This document shows positions 52,477 through 58,099 of a DNA stretch of 64,000 nt, piece after piece (the stretch's first letter is position 1; the number at the start of each line of letters is the position of its first letter). The position numbers and the translations under genes were made by a program. Source of the stretch: a virus; the UHGV virus genome UHGV-0293664. One strand, 5' to 3'. The notes under the pieces are model-generated. The model ran no database searches and was not told where the DNA came from. It saw only the letters and a list, made by a program, of their open reading frames with translations.

Positions 52477-52749
52477 ATGTCAAGCTGGATTAATCAAGAA
52501 GTCGAATCACGTTTTAATGCTATTTGGGATCTCATCGAAAAAGAGGACGGAACATCAAGCCCCTACCTCAACAATTTGGAATTCCATTTTGTGGAAGCGA
52601 TGAACGCAGAACATGATCACGAAGGTGGTGCGGATGAATTCGCTAAAGGATATGGCTTCAACAATGCCAACGAAATGATCGAGGCGGTTGTACTCCAGGC
52701 TGAGGAAGATTATCAATTAAAAACGCTTGAATTCTGCCGCCGTAAGTAA
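52477..52749 (+). CDS. early protein
   Basis: 90 aa; SD AGAGAGGAAAA. Confidence 0.75.
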   Translation: MSSWINQEVESRFNAIWDLIEKEDGTSSPYLNNLEFHFVEAMNAEHDHEGGADEFAKGYGFNNANEMIEAVVLQAEEDYQLKTLEFCRRK

Positions 52750-52811
52750 TAAGATAATGACACGGGCCAAAAGGCCCACTAAACAAAAACCACATAAAGA
52801 GGAAAAACATC

Positions 52812-53075
52812 ATGAAACGCCTTGATCAGCTCAAATTAGTTCAATATATGGCTTATCGTGTTCTTGAAGTCCAGAAAGGTAGCAAAAAAGAGGTTTGCGA
52901 GAAAGCTTATAAGATCTTCACTCGCAAAAAAGATGACTGGATGCTACGCCAGACCAAAAAGGCTGACATCTTGGGGTACCTGGAAGAAGAGATCCGACTT
53001 GAAGAGCAAGAAGAGATCCGCCGTAGTGAGGCAGATTATCAGGCCGCTTGGGAAAACTGGATGAGCAACAAATAA
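52812..53075 (+). CDS. early protein
   Basis: 87 aa; SD AAAGAGGAAAAA. Confidence 0.75.
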   Translation: MKRLDQLKLVQYMAYRVLEVQKGSKKEVCEKAYKIFTRKKDDWMLRQTKKADILGYLEEEIRLEEQEEIRRSEADYQAAWENWMSNK

Positions 53076-53140
53076 TACAACAAGGTGCACGGTCAGGGGC
53101 TTAAAGCCCCTTGATCACATAAAAATTATGCTATCCCTGG

Positions 53141-53169
53141 TTGACAGGGATCGGCAGTTTTGCTATATT
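53141..53169 (+). promoter_or_regulatory. sigma70-like promoter
   Basis: TTGACA-17 nt-TATATT; -35 embedded in CCCTGG...CAGGG inverted repeat. Confidence 0.6.
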
Positions 53170-53218
53170 CTTTTTTGAAGGGAAGTTGTAAGAAAATTAA
53201 CTAAGAGGTAAAAACACC

Positions 53219-53638
53219 ATGAACATTAAATCTAATAATCCGGCATATAGCTTTGATAACGCTTTTTGTCACGGTCCGGCGGCGAAAGGATTCGAAATCG
53301 ATGGTAAACTAATTATTGTCAATGTTGACGGGGAAGAGGTTGCAGTATATCCGGTGGCAGACGTAAAAAGCCGTTTACAATGCCGCATGGATGTTACCGC
53401 CTATCAGCTTGATCCGGTCCGCATAGTTGCCCTGGTCCTGGAGGAAGAAATTAAAGCCATGCACCATAGCAACAGGTTTATTGGTGACGCTCAGGATAAT
53501 ATGAAGGTGTGCCGCCATAAAGTTAATGAAGTGCTTAAAGAGTACGGCTATAAGGATTTAATGATCAAGCGTGATGAAAAATTCCGCTACCGTAACGACC
53601 TGGCAAATCGGATTTTTGAAATATACGAATCATTATAA
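53219..53638 (+). CDS. early protein
   Basis: 139 aa; SD TAAGAGG. Confidence 0.8.
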   Translation: MNIKSNNPAYSFDNAFCHGPAAKGFEIDGKLIIVNVDGEEVAVYPVADVKSRLQCRMDVTAYQLDPVRIVALVLEEEIKAMHHSNRFIGDAQDNMKVCRHKVNEVLKEYGYKDLMIKRDEKFRYRNDLANRIFEIYESL

Positions 53639-53656
53639 TTTCTTAACTGAATTATC

Positions 53657-53685
53657 AAGGGGCTTAAAGGCCCCTTTCTTTTTGT
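53657..53685 (+). terminator. intrinsic terminator closing the plus-strand early block
   Basis: AAGGGGC-TTAAA-GCCCCTT then TCTTTTTG. Confidence 0.8.
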
Positions 53686-56201
53686 CTGCTCTTCTCCTAC
53701 CATAAACGGCCCTACCTGGCAAGTGGAATAATTGACTAGCCATCAATCCCACACACTGTACAAATATACATGGAAAATAACTATTGCATAATTTTTCATT
53801 GTGTGGTAGCAAGTCCATTTTTACCCGTTTTCTCTCCCAAAATTGCACGTAATGCCGCTATTGCACAAATTTTAACCTGATGCACATCTCCAATATCTTG
53901 TCAACAACTAAAAATCTTTATAAGTCATACACTTACACAGCATCGAAAGCGTGTTCTACGCGAAAAATCGAGTATAACTATAGCCGCCAGATCTCAGAAT
54001 TCACGTACGCACACCATTCTATAGTCCGCTAAGTATTTATTCCAACCACAGAATAACGGAATAGTCAATACCTGTACAAAATAATTATTCGTATAAACTG
54101 CATAACATAAACCTGTCCAGGTGTCAACATTTTTCGTAAACAGTCTGAAATTGTCACGATAGGTTACTATAATCAGAGAAATCTTTAGTCGTCTAATGTT
54201 TACTGCACATAACTATACTGACTGGAATCATTAGATGACTAATAGAAAGATAAGAAATAGTTAACAATGTAATTGTTTTACCTGTAACAATAAGGCAACT
54301 ATGCAAACGAATGTCATGGCGCGACGGAGTCGCGACATAATATAAAAGCAGTAACCATCACCCCCGTGATAGTTTGTCTGCAAACTATTAATCAGATCAT
54401 AGTTGCCTTGTATTTAGTTAATCATGACATAACAAGCAAGGCAACTATAGATCTGCTAATAGTTGCCCTGCTTTTATATTATGTCATATATTATTAACCT
54501 GTTAATTGTCAGCTTGTTGGATGTTAGCTTGTCAATTATTAACTTGCTAATTGTTTTCATGCAAACGAATGTCATGGCTGATTATTTCTATGTAAATGGT
54601 TTGTTCGTAAACAGTTTATTCGGGAACAGTTTATTCGGGAACAGTGAGGCATGCAATAGTAACAATTGTTATTGTATCCAGTGTGTTGAGTATGCCCAGT
54701 GTGTCCAGTATGTCAGACAAGTTTTTCCTCTCTTTGTCAAGTGCCGCATTAAAAATTTACAAACTGGTATGGTAGCATTTTTGCGGCCCTGTTTACATTC
54801 AGCAGTGTATGTATAACCCTTGTTGTGTGGGCGTTTAGACGTCTAGACGGTTGGAAGTCTACAGGTCAATATCTAATCTATTGGCTGCTAACTATATCCC
54901 ACACAAATAGTAAGAAATATGATTGTTATATGCGTAAACTGTAACTCATGTTATCAATCCCTGTATGTATCGCCAGTGGTTCGCATAATGGGTATTATGT
55001 TAAATTGCCAGTAATGATAACGATTCTCACAATGATAGGTATTCTCATTCATCCACACAAAATAGTTTGCAAATGTTGTGCCACTGTGTGAACGGCCTGG
55101 CCTATTAATTTCTCTCACTGCCTCGATATTTGAGAATTGTTATAAGAATGAGAAGTATTCCCATTCCGTCCGCCTGGCAGCGCTCCTGTAGGTCCTGCAA
55201 GGACTCTAGCTGAAAGCTAGACCCTTCGGGCCTCCCTGTAGGTCAGGTCAAAATCGTGGTAGAATTGGGCCTGTTCAGATATTTCTGGCTGACTCTTCAG
55301 GTCTGTGTGGGAAAAGCCAACCTCTCCGGCGGGGCAGGGGGTCATGACGGTAAAATTGCAGGTCAATTAAAAAATTTACGTGGTGTATGAAGCGCTCTTC
55401 AGGTAAGGCAGGTATTATGGGATGAAACCCTCTTCAGGCAATGATATTTGTGGGTGTGATATTTGCTGGAAAGCCAGATATGACGGGACTCCCGGCGGGG
55501 CAGGGGTAGTACAGACAGGGGAAATATGGGGGATGTGGTTGGGGAAATTGATCAGGCAGGAAGAGTATGGAATATGTTACAGATATGTTAAATATGAAGG
55601 TAGGATATTTGTAGGATTTGTGTGTAAAATCAAAGACTTAAGTGGTGTTGTGGTATTTTCTATAAATAATTCAAGTTTAATAGGCAATATTTGTCTCTAT
55701 CCGCTTTGTGTGGTAAACAGATTCAGATGAGATTGGTTTACAGGTGTATACATAATATACAAATTAAAGATACAAGAAACCCCCCTCCCCCTTCGGCTAC
55801 CATTCACCTTTTCCTCTGACTGGTACTTAAACACTTATTCAGACTCTTCAGGTTATCACCCATATATCATATGGCAGTGACTGGTGTCCTCCGGCCCCTC
55901 TTTCGTCACCCGTCCGCTTCGCCATGCTAATGCCATAGCCAAATGTTCGGTTGTTCACCCTGTTCACTCAGGTGTATCTCCATACCCCTTCAAACCGAAG
56001 AGAACAGAAAACCCGAATTACTCGGTAAAAGAAAAGAGAAGAACTTAATTTTATCAGGATAGGCAAGAATGTCAAGGCATGACTGCTCACTAAACAAGCA
56101 AACAGTCATGTGTGGGAGGTAAGTGATTGTGGTGGTAGGAAATTTAGTTGAAAGATGTGTTATAGGTGCTCCAGCACTTTATCCAGGCAGCTAATTGTGT
56201 G
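53686..56201. other. 2.5-kb non-coding, AT-rich, repeat- and palindrome-rich region at convergence of plus and minus transcription
   Basis: No convincing ORF; direct repeats, large inverted repeats and tetraloop hairpins (see findings). Confidence 0.7.
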
Positions 56202-56417
56202 TCAGTCCAGCGGTTCATCCTCTACTTCACTGAAATCAATGTTCATGGTCTCCTCCCAACCATCGATCTCAGCACAAGAGTGGAGTTCTTTAGGGTTTAC
56301 CCCCAAAGCCTCAGCAACAGAGTCTATATTTAACACCTCTGGCAGGTATGATTCATCGAATTCAAGGTAAATCAGGCCACGAGTGTTGTCAGCTCCACCA
56401 AATATCTCTATCTTCAT
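56202..56417 (-). CDS. small acidic protein
   Basis: 71 aa; GAGGAG SD 6 nt upstream. Confidence 0.75.
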   Translation of the reverse strand: MKIEIFGGADNTRGLIYLEFDESYLPEVLNIDSVAEALGVNPKELHSCAEIDGWEETMNIDFSEVEDEPLD

Positions 56418-56538
56418 TGAATCTCCTCTGGAAATGAGAGTGTGAACAGGGTTTCATACGTTACAACACGCTGGAATTATGCACGTTTGCCTCTTCAGGC
56501 CATGCTCTAGCATGAGGAACCTGTGTGGGCTCGGTGCT

Positions 56539-56943
56539 TCATAGTCTACCACCTCTGAACTCTTCGTGCTCAGGCATAATAGAGAACCAGATATCTACGA
56601 TGTCTCCCCACGTCAAGTCATCAGCCTCAGGATCTACCTGGAGCGAAGATGGAGAATCTTCAGAATCGAAGTTTTCCCCTTTCACTGGCTCAGCCAGGCT
56701 ACATATGGTCGTCACTCCTTCAGATGCATGTATGTTGATCATGTTCCACCCGTGAGTATTCCGGCAACAGCCGCTATGGACGTAATGATCATCAGGATCA
56801 CCACTAAAACCTCGGATAATGTTCTCATTGTGTATTCCATATTCTCCAAACGATGTGTGGATACTATCACGAGAGCGGTAATGTGTCAACAGAAACGCCG
56901 CGAGGGTTTGGTTAAAATCCGAGCGTATGGTGATTTTGGTCAA
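56539..56943 (-). CDS. possible acidic protein (start uncertain)
   Basis: 134-aa ORF with TTG at track start; lies downstream of a minus-strand terminator; competing plus-strand ORF looks low-complexity. Confidence 0.35.
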   Translation of the reverse strand: MTKITIRSDFNQTLAAFLLTHYRSRDSIHTSFGEYGIHNENIIRGFSGDPDDHYVHSGCCRNTHGWNMINIHASEGVTTICSLAEPVKGENFDSEDSPSSLQVDPEADDLTWGDIVDIWFSIMPEHEEFRGGRL

Positions 56944-57049
56944 AACGGACGTGCGTTCTCGCTACGCTCGAAATAGAGAGTTGCTTGTAAGCCGCCCTTA
57001 AACGCTCTGTAATGAGATTAACTGCTTAAGGTATGGAATCGTTCACCGG

Positions 57050-57078
57050 ATAAAGAAAAGGACGCCACAGAGCGTCCT
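57050..57078 (-). terminator. intrinsic terminator (minus strand)
   Basis: On minus strand AGGACGC-TCTGTG-GCGTCCT then TTTTCTTTA. Confidence 0.7.
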
Positions 57079-57102
57079 ATGTGCCTTAAATTTGATACTT
57101 TG

Positions 57103-57402
57103 CTATACCCATGAAGGCTTGTCTAGGTTTGAGTAACTAAAAGGTGTCAAAAGGTGACTGTCAAAATCTTTCAAACTATCCAGATCTTTTTCCTCGTCTT
57201 GACACCATCTGTGCCTACATTTATTGTTGTAGTGCATGGAGTGCATAGCGTTCTGCAACTTAACAGGTACAAGGGATTCAGGAGTAGATAGTATTGTTGG
57301 GTATGCCAGAACCACCTCAAACAATGGAAACACATCGAAACTGAAGTTTATTTCTGCTGAGGTTGCTGGCATATAGGAGTATTTAGCTGTCGTTGTAGAC
57401 AT
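57103..57402 (-). CDS. hypothetical protein
   Basis: ATG at 57402 after GAGGTGG; track start 57414 is GTG. Confidence 0.65.
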   Translation of the reverse strand: MSTTTAKYSYMPATSAEINFSFDVFPLFEVVLAYPTILSTPESLVPVKLQNAMHSMHYNNKCRHRWCQDEEKDLDSLKDFDSHLLTPFSYSNLDKPSWV

Positions 57403-57410
57403 AATCCACC

Positions 57411-57794
57411 TCACACAGGCTTGATAATACCTTCACCGAATAACTCTTCATATTTAATCTTATCAGGATCCCACTCTTGGATAATTTCGAAGACAATGTC
57501 CAGCCCAGGGATAATCACTTCTCCAGTATCAAGTCTGGCAAGAACAAAACCGGAAGGTTGAATGGTTTCCCAGTTGCGACGATTAGAATAGAGAACTTCG
57601 AAAATATCGCCAACCGCAATCTGCTGATCAAGATGTTCAAGATTTTCTTTCATATAGACGCAGCGGATTTTTCGTGCAGGCCATAGACCGCCTGCATCAC
57701 GTTCATTTAGCTCTTTTACAGTAATCGGTATACCCATCTCAAAATCTCCTTCATAGATAGTAAAAAGAGGGGCCCAAGCCCCTCTCTTTGTCAT
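57411..57794 (-). CDS. hypothetical protein
   Basis: 127-aa ORF with ATG overlapping upstream stop; alternative internal ATG 57737 has AAGGAG SD. Confidence 0.7.
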   Translation of the reverse strand: MTKRGAWAPLFTIYEGDFEMGIPITVKELNERDAGGLWPARKIRCVYMKENLEHLDQQIAVGDIFEVLYSNRRNWETIQPSGFVLARLDTGEVIIPGLDIVFEIIQEWDPDKIKYEELFGEGIIKPV

Positions 57795-58099
57795 TATTCT
57801 ACAGAGCGTTTGAACAGAATGTCTGCTTCAGACATGTGCTCAACCTCTTCTTCGATTTTAGCTCGACGTTTTTCAGCTTCGTAGCGGATATCGAATTCGG
57901 TAGCCACCAATGACTTGATAAACTTAGGAGAATACAGGTGATCCTGTTTCTCGACAAGAATAATATCCTTGATAGCGTCTTTCAGATCTTTAATCTGAAG
58001 CTGAAGTTCCACCAGCTCTTCAATTGTTTTACGGAGGCGATCACGCTCTGCAGTGTCAGAAGGCAGAGAGGTGAACAGTTCAACTTTAGATTTAGCCAT
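57794..58099 (-). CDS. coiled-coil protein
   Basis: 101 aa; AAGGAG SD; Glu/Lys-rich heptads. Confidence 0.75.
   Translation of the reverse strand: MAKSKVELFTSLPSDTAERDRLRKTIEELVELQLQIKDLKDAIKDIILVEKQDHLYSPKFIKSLVATEFDIRYEAEKRRAKIEEEVEHMSEADILFKRSVE

Follow-up and report, generated by a model that had tools for sequence, protein, structure and literature searches.

A gene-free gap in a Vequintavirus genome as a probable concatemer junction with a 459-bp direct terminal repeat

Judged by its sequence, the window (64,000 nucleotides of the virus genome UHGV-0293664, the whole stretch analysed here) is from a Vequintavirus, an rV5-like E. coli myophage. It contains a gene-free gap of about 2.5 kb at 53686 to 56201, on which two arrays of small genes converge, and the coordinates given for the gap in the initial annotation were verified. 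The gap was matched at 90 to 95% identity in 122 phage records, nearly all of them Vequintavirus, and is covered in its entirety by the rV5 and V5 records at about 88 to 92% identity. The features of the gap and its borders are listed below, with the strand where one applies and with a slash marking a cut site.

53657 to 53685, plus strand: rho-independent terminator of the plus-strand small-gene array (8-bp stem with 5 GC pairs at 53657 to 53676, then a T-run)
53686 to 54715: unique non-coding flank just inside the right-end copy of the direct terminal repeat (DTR) of virion DNA, placed from the map of phage Gotham
54285 to 54578: AT-rich cluster of iterons and palindromes (repeat search, DNA fold)
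54500 to 54714: hypervariable tract of repeats, directly next to the left cut site (tandem-repeat search, relatives)
54711 to 54718, plus strand: left DTR boundary TGTCA/GAC, cut between 54715 and 54716 (start of the Gotham DTR)
54716 to 55174: DTR of 459 bp (homology to the Gotham repeat_region)
54725 to 54763: deeply conserved DTR motif A (TTGTCAAGTG...AAATTTACAA), 10 to 48 nt inside the left end
54978 to 55008: deeply conserved DTR motif B (GGTGCGYATAAYGKGTWTTATGTTAAAT; cross-genus nhmmer)
55172 to 55179, minus strand: right DTR boundary TGCCA/GGC, cut between 55174 and 55175 (end of the Gotham DTR)
55175 to 55789: left-end non-coding flank (repeat and motif search)
55185 to 55244: two copies of the 10-nt direct repeat CCTGTAGGTC bracketing a 50-nt segment (alignment of relatives)
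55780 to 55791, minus strand: C6TC5 tract (G5AG6 in a minus-strand transcript), then AT-rich DNA (read from the sequence)
55790 to 56150: ultra-conserved non-coding block of about 360 nt (82 to 100% invariant columns in 19 relatives)
55954 to 56029, minus strand: extended 76-nt hairpin of the predicted RNA, which may be a small RNA or a leader (RNA fold)
56048 to 56075, minus strand: strong sigma-70-type promoter TTGACA-16-TAAAAT with TG upstream, directed toward the DTR (score 11/12)
56202 to 56417, minus strand: 71-aa gene that closes the converging minus-strand array and borders the gap (ORF list, relatives)

Both borders are found in relatives. The site homologous to the terminator carries a terminator annotation in Murica, Alma and Gotham, and the ORF at 56202 to 56417 is annotated as a gene in all relatives and intact in 18 of 19. 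The gap had been described as AT-rich, which is true of 54001 to 55000 (GC 0.36, the lowest in the window) but not of 55001 to 56000, where GC is 0.44 and equals the window average. Its description as full of repeats and palindromes was borne out: the two top-scoring tandem repeats in a scan of all 64 kb both lie inside it (54599 to 54645 and 54678 to 54712), several 8- to 9-mers are enriched 20- to 200-fold, and a palindrome cluster at 54280 to 54500 gave a DNA fold z of -9.6 with signal on both strands. No tRNA or tmRNA was found in the window by ARAGORN. In a five-way alignment the gap was conserved as well as the flanking genes or better, and on this comparison its sequence is not junk.

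Gotham has an annotated repeat_region that aligned with 54716 to 55174 over 459 of 459 positions, gapless and at 93% identity, and its two identical copies occupy both ends of the Gotham record. The Gotham authors obtained 459-bp terminal repeats from virion-DNA sequencing, taking about twofold read coverage and pile-ups of read starts at the boundaries as the sign of a DTR, and reported one specific packaging start in all virions (PMC7471380). A terminal redundancy of 458 bp was reported by Korf et al. for EdH4 and HdK5 (PMC6563267). Ten GenBank records from several laboratories (at least nine besides Gotham) start or end exactly at the DTR boundaries, among them bov10K2, bov22_2, Pr121LW, EcoIv14a_Aya, ECP2303, YN3, EdH4, HdK5 and Gotham; Gotham, EdH4 and HdK5 carry the DTR at both record ends. 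By match strand, the left boundary is the record end in Gotham, ECP2303, YN3, Pr121LW and EcoIv14a_Aya. The right boundary is the record start in bov10K2 and bov22_2 and also, by match strand, in EdH4 and HdK5. Two papers on relatives called the termini 'circularly permuted' or 'headful' from PhageTerm defaults; nonetheless, the revised bov10K2 and bov22_2 records open exactly at the DTR boundary.

By homology to these phages, the virion DNA of the window phage would have the DTR at both ends, and these would be fixed and non-permuted, the boundaries being transferred from relatives at 93% identity. In the circularly collapsed window sequence the DTR is single-copy. The terminal repeats of Gotham, EdH4 and HdK5 are the same element as 54716 to 55174, with both boundaries equal, but the reports on them gave the repeat length alone, with no gap position, cut-site motif or flanking elements, and the ends of the window phage are derived from theirs. 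The gap itself had appeared in the rV5 paper of Kropinski et al. (2013, PMC3606486), which noted 'no observable ORFs from 104013-106618' and drew the region as a 'non-coding' box. Like our gap, this box, of 2.6 kb, is ORF-free DNA between converging small-gene units, at the identical locus and in the same genus, but the 2013 paper assigned no function to it and left the termini undetermined. The gap and its terminal repeat are already in print, and the locus, known in kind and in place, is therefore mostly ordinary. The 594-nt 'insertion' of I29 is probably no tandem DTR but an artefact of assembly: it duplicates 546 nt perfectly, and its junction is inverted.

The sequence TGYYA/RRC, read inward, is found at both DTR boundaries, although it is too short and degenerate to be specific alone (about 30 chance copies are expected per 64 kb). 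In the alignment of relatives, conservation restarts exactly at the left boundary. Hypervariable tracts lie near both boundaries, the left one abutting and the right one beginning 18 nt outside. Within the DTR, motif B is the best-conserved bin, with 86% invariant columns in 19 relatives.

Like the window phage, phages of other genera, namely the mydoviruses KPP-1 and DP and the Seunavirus PVP-SE1, have a short DTR in a gene-poor gap between converging small-gene arrays, and both its boundaries and two motifs inside it have sequences homologous to those of the window DTR. For Klebsiella phage KPP-1, a 514-bp DTR of the T7-type class was reported from 2x coverage and PhageTerm. It sits in the gene-poor gap at the corresponding convergence of small-gene arrays, and the identical 514 bp are annotated as a terminal repeat in the record of Klebsiella phage DP. 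Salmonella phage PVP-SE1 has the same layout of a terminator, a 2.24-kb CDS-free gap and converging genes, with a DTR homolog in mid-gap. In both KPP-1 and PVP-SE1 the left junction homolog is TGCTA/AAC and the right one is GTCCGTC/TAGCAC (minus strand TGCTA/GAC), so that TGYYA/RRC stands at every end across three genera, within alignable boundary sequence. The Vequintavirus nhmmer profile of motif A matched PVP-SE1 at 2509 to 2547 (E = 0.007), collinear with motif B, and KPP-1 also has motif A; motif B matched PVP-SE1 with E = 7.7e-6 and KPP-1 with E = 0.013. Homology between the genera was detected in the DTR part alone. The repeat of these phages is about 55 bp longer, their flanks are unalignable and their iteron sequences different, and nhmmer profiles of the flanks and of the ultra-conserved block gave no cross-genus homolog, with matches in the DTR alone. 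A blastn comparison of the window with KPP-1 gave nothing beyond short matches. A conserved 101-aa regulator could not serve as a synteny anchor, its distance to the DTR in KPP-1 being 36 kb.

The right-end flank corresponds to Gotham 460 to about 1470, between the left DTR copy and the first gene of that oppositely oriented record. It has no ORF conserved in 19 relatives, and 64 to 88% of its columns are invariant up to 54300. In the AT-rich cluster, the iteron ATAGTTGCC occurs four times as inverted pairs, together with a perfect 18-nt inverted repeat (54334 to 54351 and 54468 to 54485) and a 20-nt direct repeat ATGCAAACGAATGTCATGGC with copies at 54301 and 54559. Exactly 54301 to 54558 is missing from FV3, a single 258-bp unit spanning from one 20-nt direct repeat to the next; with it go the 18-nt inverted repeat and all but one of the four ATAGTTGCC copies. 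FV3 is a published viable phage, and this part of the cluster is therefore dispensable. The adjoining tract at 54500 to 54714 has numerous indels and invariant columns down to 0 to 8% in the 19 relatives; it contains a 15-nt tandem repeat in three copies (54599 to 54645), a 9-nt tandem repeat TCCAGTATG in four copies (54677 to 54714) and reiterations of (A/G)TGTCA.

In the left-end flank, the 50-nt segment at 55192 to 55241 is absent from 9 of 18 relatives. The motif CTCTTCAGG is found on the plus strand at 55293, 55395 and 55430. It occurs six times in the window: four times in the gap (the fourth at 55844), once at 56491 and in a single copy elsewhere. CCGGCGGGGCAGGGG is located at 55326 and 55492, and motifs of these kinds recur, in the same orientation, in the corresponding flank of PVP-SE1. 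The C6TC5 tract, which varies in length among relatives, lies just beyond the edge of the ultra-conserved block at 55790, with a two-base overlap.

Taken together with the termini of the relatives, this arrangement suggests that the gap is very probably the concatemer junction of the Vequintavirus genome, consisting of right-end flank, DTR and left-end flank. The two chromosome ends are joined in the window because a single copy of the terminal repeat is left after assembly. In the orientation of the window, the virion order is DTR, 55175 to 56201, the minus-strand genes, the rest of the genome, the plus-strand genes, the terminator, 53686 to 54715, and DTR. By analogy with T7-type short-DTR phages, replication would yield head-to-tail concatemers with one DTR per junction. 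The terminase would recognise sequences in or beside the DTR, with motifs A and B as the foremost candidates, and would cleave at two fixed sites, and strand-displacement synthesis would duplicate the DTR so that each packaged genome has a copy at either end. The gene-free flanks of about 1 kb, with their slippage-variable repeat tracts, iterons and promoter, may be accessory cis elements with candidate roles in packaging, replication initiation or early events after injection. A packaging locus was among the functions initially proposed, and the position of the virion ends and of the 459-bp DTR in mid-gap, assigned by homology, upholds it.

The concatemer junction of T7 has a 160-bp terminal repeat, flanking arrays of short repeats and pac signals. 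Like T7, the window phage has a short exact DTR, fixed ends and a junction that is free of genes over more than 1 kb and carries repeats and promoters, and the window encodes a replisome of the T7 type, with a DnaB-type helicase domain protein (a primase-helicase in T7) and a family A polymerase. Unlike T7, it is a myovirus of about 137 kb without sequence similarity to T7, and its end genes point outward to the termini, so that the leading end lacks an inward early operon like that of T7. The window phage and its relatives would form a myovirus lineage of at least three genera with T7-style fixed ends and a conserved cut-site motif. Many vequintavirus GenBank records were opened at arbitrary points and some pad the gap with spurious small CDS; as a terminal repeat, 54716 to 55174 would give a natural start and end for the genomes of therapy candidates. 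It would also guide engineering, distinguishing DNA to keep for packaging from dispensable DNA, for instance the 258 bp that FV3 lacks. Packaging would account for the DTR and perhaps 100 to 200 bp on its sides. It gives no obvious reason for the 2 kb of conserved flanks or for an ultra-conserved block some 600 to 1000 bp away, and by itself it leaves both the AT-rich iteron and palindrome cluster and the clustered CTCTTCAGG motif unaccounted for.

A replication origin was another of the functions initially proposed, and its obvious candidate is the cluster at 54285 to 54578, where iterons would bind an initiator beside DNA that unwinds, and where the turn in GC skew would mark an origin or terminus. 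The inverted iteron pairs, the 18-nt inverted repeat, the lowest GC of the window and the extreme hairpin or cruciform potential (z = -9.6) agree with such an origin, as do the analogous inverted iterons, unrelated in sequence, in the same flank of KPP-1 and PVP-SE1. We nevertheless consider it unlikely. FV3 propagates without most of the iterons, the cluster sequence is not conserved across genera, and DnaA boxes are no more frequent than chance predicts (22 in the window against 19.7 expected, with one in the gap). The iterons and AT-rich DNA of an iteron-type or DnaA-dependent origin are present, but such an origin would be required for propagation, and FV3 lacks 258 bp of the cluster. The GC-skew maximum falls where the coding strand switches, and skew changes in the rV5 genome were attributed by its authors to changed transcription orientation (PMC3606486). 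The same repeats and palindromes might instead pause DNA entry near the leading end, as in T5. Like the T5 injection stop signal, for which such features are listed (Davison, as quoted by others), they are clustered in non-coding DNA at the genome ends. This is very improbable for the window phage, whose DTR is 459 bp and gene-free, unlike the T5 repeat of about 10 kb with its pre-early genes, and in which DnaA boxes, present in T5, are not enriched. FV3 does without part of the palindrome cluster, and we know of no two-step DNA transfer in the rV5-like group.

It is scarcely plausible that the gap is instead filled by unannotated small protein-coding genes, although such genes have been called in some records: 16 CDS in NHEP1, a single one in each of Gotham, Alma, Murica and WM, and a 44-aa 'structural protein' in APCEc02. 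The last is an unconserved ORF (55256 to 55390), for which the APCEc02 paper gives no mass spectrometry or proteomic basis, and its authors found no homologs of ORFs 65 and 66. The majority of GenBank records have zero CDS annotated in the gap, and the rV5 authors likewise saw no ORFs (PMC3606486). Outside the ultra-conserved block, the ORFs of 36 to 117 aa are mostly intact in just 1 to 9 of 19 relatives, with the exception of 54948 to 55091 (16 of 19). In these relatives the gap ORFs show no third-position excess of variable sites, which are evenly spread over the codon positions, in contrast to the 10/5/33 of the control gene at 56202 to 56417. The ORFs within the ultra-conserved block gave 3/4/4 and are intact because the sequence there does not vary. 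These counts agree with the view of the initial annotation that no convincing ORF lies between the terminator and 56202, and the ordinary genes in related phages that would have spoken against it came down to a few unconserved in-silico CDS calls.

Beyond the concatemer junction, the remaining puzzle, of modest residual interest, is a non-coding block whose conservation exceeds that of every neighbouring gene. The block is at least 99% identical in 66 of 118 records and 95 to 99% identical in the remaining 52; the DTR is mostly at 90 to 95%, and the sequence neighbouring the block differs by 5 to 10% among genomes. It has no homolog in 5,426 E. coli genomes, so host mimicry was rejected, and no codon periodicity in 19 relatives. 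Neither hexamer of its promoter varies in any relative examined, not even in L008 and Aya, which diverge most. The minus-strand RNA of the 76-nt hairpin folds at -45.8 kcal/mol with z = -3.15, compared with -1.07 for the plus strand. Its interval has three variable columns in all in the 19 relatives, the few substitutions leave the hairpin unbroken, and the core at 55960 to 56040 shows no change in the two relatives that diverge most among those compared. Folding of the whole block was significant on neither strand (z = -1.15 and +1.18).

The block may thus be a non-coding RNA gene or a transcription-primed origin, with a host polymerase start at about 56041 on the minus strand, a possibility that we regard as real but doubtful. 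The transcript may be a small RNA containing the hairpin, or a G-rich RNA that remains hybridised at C6TC5 (55780 to 55791), beside AT-rich DNA, and primes DNA synthesis. The near-perfect invariant promoter, the strand-specific hairpin, the identity of 360 nt among divergent neighbours, the absence of a coding signal, the halt of conservation at the G5AG6 tract and the T7-like replisome encoded in the window all speak for it. Origins of T7 and T4 are promoter-dependent, and in R-loop primed origins (T4 oriF/oriG, T7, ColE1) a promoter transcript forms a persistent hybrid that is extended by DNA polymerase. The window has the ingredients of such origins alone, namely an invariant promoter and G5AG6 beside AT-rich DNA. 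Against this reading, the full 286-nt transcript is not unusually stable (z = -1.15), no convincing terminator follows, and other genera, KPP-1, DP and PVP-SE1 included, lack a counterpart of the block; the analogous region of PVP-SE1 has a weak promoter and a weak, dissimilar fold (z = -2.07). The covariance-model scan suggested in the initial annotation was run with Rfam 15 and gave nothing at gathering score in the whole window and nothing at E up to 1 in 53600 to 56300. Of the non-coding RNAs proposed there, what stands is one candidate small RNA, from about 56041 to 55905 on the minus strand. No relevant vequintavirus transcriptomics was found in the literature, and the EdH4 CRISPRi-ART paper did not address the gap region. 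With yet more reserve, we suggest from these sequence features that the block is an undescribed Vequintavirus-specific unit, in which a promoter would lead to a hairpin transcript, G5AG6 and AT-rich DNA and which would act as a small RNA or an origin primer. In the latter case, a transcription-dependent origin would sit about 0.6 to 1 kb from the left genome end. A search of IMG/VR for further relatives gave three loci by protein and two by 18-mer.

The 2,516 bases of the gene-free region (window 53686-56201) were matched essentially over their full length by 122 phage records (90-95% in megablast; ~85-93% in blastn), almost all classified as Vequintavirus (rV5-like E. coli myophages). Proteins encoded elsewhere in the window agree with this assignment, among them two helicases (a protein with a DnaB-type helicase domain and PIF1) and a family A DNA polymerase. 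The features discussed are as follows.

53657-53685, plus strand: terminator-like hairpin and T-run closing the plus-strand side of the gap
53686-54715: right-end flank
54285-54578: AT-rich iteron/palindrome cluster, in which ATAGTTGCC occurs four times, as inverted pairs
54500-54714: left variable tract, abutting the cut site; 15-nt and 9-nt units that vary in number, reiterated RTGTCA
54716-55174: predicted direct terminal repeat (DTR)
54725-54763: motif A, in the DTR
54978-55008: motif B, in the DTR
55175-56201: left-end flank
From 18 nt outside the right DTR boundary: right variable tract, a 50-nt segment flanked by two copies of CCTGTAGGTC
55790-56150: ultra-conserved block
56202-56417, minus strand: first minus-strand gene (71 aa), bounding the gap

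In the blastn list, the ends of several records fall within the region, and only at two query positions. In phage vB_EcoM_Gotham a repeat_region is annotated at 1-459 and 136567-137025, with identical copies, and it aligns to window 54716-55174 without gaps over 459/459 columns at 93% identity. A 458-bp terminal redundancy was reported independently for the vequintaviruses EdH4 and HdK5 (Korf et al., PMC6563267). Window 54716-55174 was then used as query to survey termini among phage records. Records of bov10K2, bov22_2, Pr121LW and EcoIv14a_Aya have this block as their exact start, and ECP2303 has it as its exact end; the YN3 record stops at the left boundary, and in EdH4, HdK5 and Gotham the block is found at either end. 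These exact record ends, together with the repeats of Gotham, EdH4 and HdK5, indicate by homology that the region is the junction of two chromosome ends, its repeat collapsed to a single copy in the window. Transcription at both chromosome ends runs outward, toward the termini. Of the functions proposed in the initial annotation, a packaging locus was thus the right one, since the DTR and the fixed ends of relatives map here; an origin or a structured RNA is unproven and left for sub-parts of the region only.

The terminal repeat has already been published for the group (2019, 2020; 2023 for the sister genus), as has the gene-free gap of Vequintavirus (2013). The present analysis adds the placement of the repeat within the gap, a cut-site motif conserved in three genera, the finding that 258 bp of the iteron cluster are dispensable, and the ultra-conserved block with its promoter and hairpin. 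The literature on Vequintavirus packaging mode is inconsistent. Termini have been published as 'circular permutated' or headful from PhageTerm runs (bov10K2/bov22_2 description; BpE1AUH paper); the revised bov10K2 (MT884008.2) and bov22_2 (MT884010.2) records nevertheless open exactly at the DTR boundary.

The absence of genes, proposed from the sequence of this phage alone, held among 19 aligned genomes (the window, 16 GenBank relatives and 2 IMG/VR contigs). All ORFs of at least 36 aa in the region were examined for integrity and for variation by codon position, and none showed an excess of variation at third positions or behaved as a gene. The 71-aa flanking gene, used as a control, was intact in 18/19 genomes with 10/5/33 variable columns by codon position. 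Region ORFs outside the invariant block were mostly intact in 1-9 of the 19, with one (54948-55091) in 16/19; those within 55848-56109 (3/4/4 variable columns) are 'intact' because there is almost no variation there. Most depositors annotated no CDS in the gap; CDS in the other records, such as the 16 in NHEP1 and a 44-aa 'structural protein' in APCEc02, were rejected as supported by gene callers alone. Conservation of the region is at least that of the surrounding small genes. The repeats and palindromes noted earlier were confirmed. The region contains both of the top-scoring tandem repeats of the 64-kb window, the palindrome cluster at 54280-54500 has a DNA fold z of -9.6, and enrichment of several 8-9-mers ranges from 20- to 200-fold. 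At GC 0.36, 54-55 kb merits the description 'AT-rich', which does not fit 55-56 kb (0.44).

In Klebsiella phage KPP-1 (Mydovirus), twofold coverage and PhageTerm revealed a 514-bp DTR at 116316-116829, which PhageTerm classed as T7-type; it lies in a gene-poor gap where plus- and minus-strand small-gene arrays converge. The identical 514 bp, compared with 459 bp in the window, is annotated as terminal repeat in Klebsiella phage DP, and KP12 begins on it. The KPP-1 repeat matches seunaviruses at ~70% identity, starting exactly at its first base. In the seunavirus PVP-SE1, a rho-independent terminator follows the small genes; beyond it come 2.24 kb free of CDS, in the middle of which the repeat homolog lies, and then converging genes. 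The sequences at the boundaries (slash) are homologous.

Left boundary: window CAGTATGTCA/GACAAGTTTTTCCTCTCTTTGTCAAG; KPP-1 GTATTGCTA/AACACAATTCTCTCTCCTTGTCAAG; PVP-SE1 GTATTGCTA/AACACAATTTTCCCTCCCTGTCAAG
Right boundary: window CCGTCCGCC/TGGCAGCGC; KPP-1 TGTCCGTC/TAGCACCGC; PVP-SE1 TGTCCGTC/TAGCACATC

Read inward, TGYYA/RRC fits 6/6 of these junctions. The two sites of PVP-SE1 are 515 bp apart, which is therefore the predicted extent of its repeat. Matches of the Vequintavirus alignment profile in other genera were confined to the DTR, at motif A and motif B (E = 7.7e-6 for the latter); its flanks gave no match.

In T7-type phages, concatemers are cut by terminase at the repeat, which is duplicated by strand displacement. 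By analogy, concatemers here would hold one repeat per junction, terminase would bind in or near it and then cut at two sites, and strand-displacement synthesis would duplicate it. What has been shown is where the repeat lies and how long it is, that relatives have fixed ends, and that boundary and internal motifs are conserved. Both DTR boundaries have nearby variable tracts, and the 50-nt segment on the right is present in about half of the genomes.

Packaging does not explain the iteron/palindrome cluster, the left-end-flank motifs or the ultra-conserved block. The cluster resembles an origin or binding array, and has a perfect inverted repeat of 18 nt and, 258 nt apart, two copies of a 20-nt direct repeat. 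DnaA boxes are at chance level. Phage FV3 (NC_019517.1) lacks exactly 54301-54558, one 258-bp unit between the 20-nt direct repeats ATGCAAACGAATGTCATGGC, so this unit is dispensable. The difference may be a repeat-mediated deletion in FV3 or, conversely, the insertion in the other phages of an element with terminal 18-nt inverted repeats. KPP-1 and PVP-SE1 carry inverted iterons in the corresponding flank, unrelated in sequence, which may point to a DNA-binding protein specific to the lineage. The 101-aa product of 57794-58099 (minus strand) is a candidate for binding the iterons or the short motifs. Its sequence is 98-100% identical across Vequintavirus, with homologs (42-60% identical) in Seunavirus, Mydovirus, Certrevirus-like, Erwinia and Aeromonas phages; its annotation varies between 'transcriptional regulator' and 'double-stranded DNA-binding protein'.

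In the left-end flank, CCGGCGGGGCAGGGG occurs twice. CTCTTCAGG has four copies in the region and one at 56491-56499, all on the plus strand, and one elsewhere in the 64 kb; CCACACA occurs 8 times in the region versus 24 in the other 61.5 kb. The corresponding flank of PVP-SE1 has similar motifs in the same orientation (NCTTCAGGY, 4-5 copies, and CCGGGCGGGGGAGGGG). One possibility is that these are repeated terminase-binding sites, as in lambda cosB. The fifth CTCTTCAGG copy lies in the spacer between minus-strand genes 56202-56417 and 56539-56943, adjoined by a CCACACA at 56522.

Within 55790-56150, 82-100% of columns are invariant in the 19 genomes, and identity is at least 99% in 66/118 records and 95-99% in the rest, compared with mostly 90-95% for the DTR. 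A sigma-70 promoter (TTGACA-16-TAAAAT, 11/12; 56075-56048, minus strand) is predicted, both hexamers never varying among the relatives compared. Over its first ~90 nt, the predicted transcript folds into a 76-nt hairpin (-45.8 kcal/mol) that is strand-specific (z = -3.15 on the minus strand versus -1.07 on the plus); its few substitutions are compatible with the fold, in a number too small for covariation. A C6TC5 tract (G5AG6 in RNA) marks the end of conservation, and AT-rich DNA lies beyond it. The block could encode a small RNA or could be a transcription-primed origin; a promoter with a G-rich tract resembles ColE1, T4 and mitochondrial origins, a likeness that serves as a lead only. Against both readings, the region had no Rfam match, the whole-block fold was not unusually stable, the transcript had no clear terminator, homologs were found neither in other genera (profile search) nor in E. 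coli, and literature searches found no transcript data. Across 52500-57500, 25 sigma-70-like sites were found, about twice the 13.0 +/- 3.6 expected from shuffles, the majority in the non-coding region on both strands; the conservation figures cover 56075-56048 only.

The gene nearest the right genome end, a 139-aa ORF beside the terminator (53219-53638, plus strand), varies among relatives: Gotham, FV3, SYGMH1, WM and Alma lack it and have an 87-aa gene (52812-53075, plus strand) as the last before the terminator. The Murica homolog of the 139-aa ORF is annotated 'contains Rel homology domain'. Homologs of the 87-aa ORF are labelled 'DNA translocase FtsK' in navn, APCEc02 and WM, which is implausible at this length and was probably carried over from a weak match. 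About 19 'Campylobacter phage' records (MG0656xx; e.g. L011, L017 and L020 among the related records), UNVERIFIED, unannotated and with C. jejuni as host, are 86-95% identical to the region and classified as Vequintavirus; they seem to be coliphage genomes that were mislabelled or arose as contaminants. In Escherichia phage I29 (ON286975.1, 1690-2829), a perfect 546-nt duplication joined via a 120-nt inverted segment spans the right half of the DTR and adjacent flank (window ~54958-55569) and contains an annotated 183-nt CDS (I29_150); its 100% identity and the palindromic form of the joint point to a misassembly at the terminal repeat.
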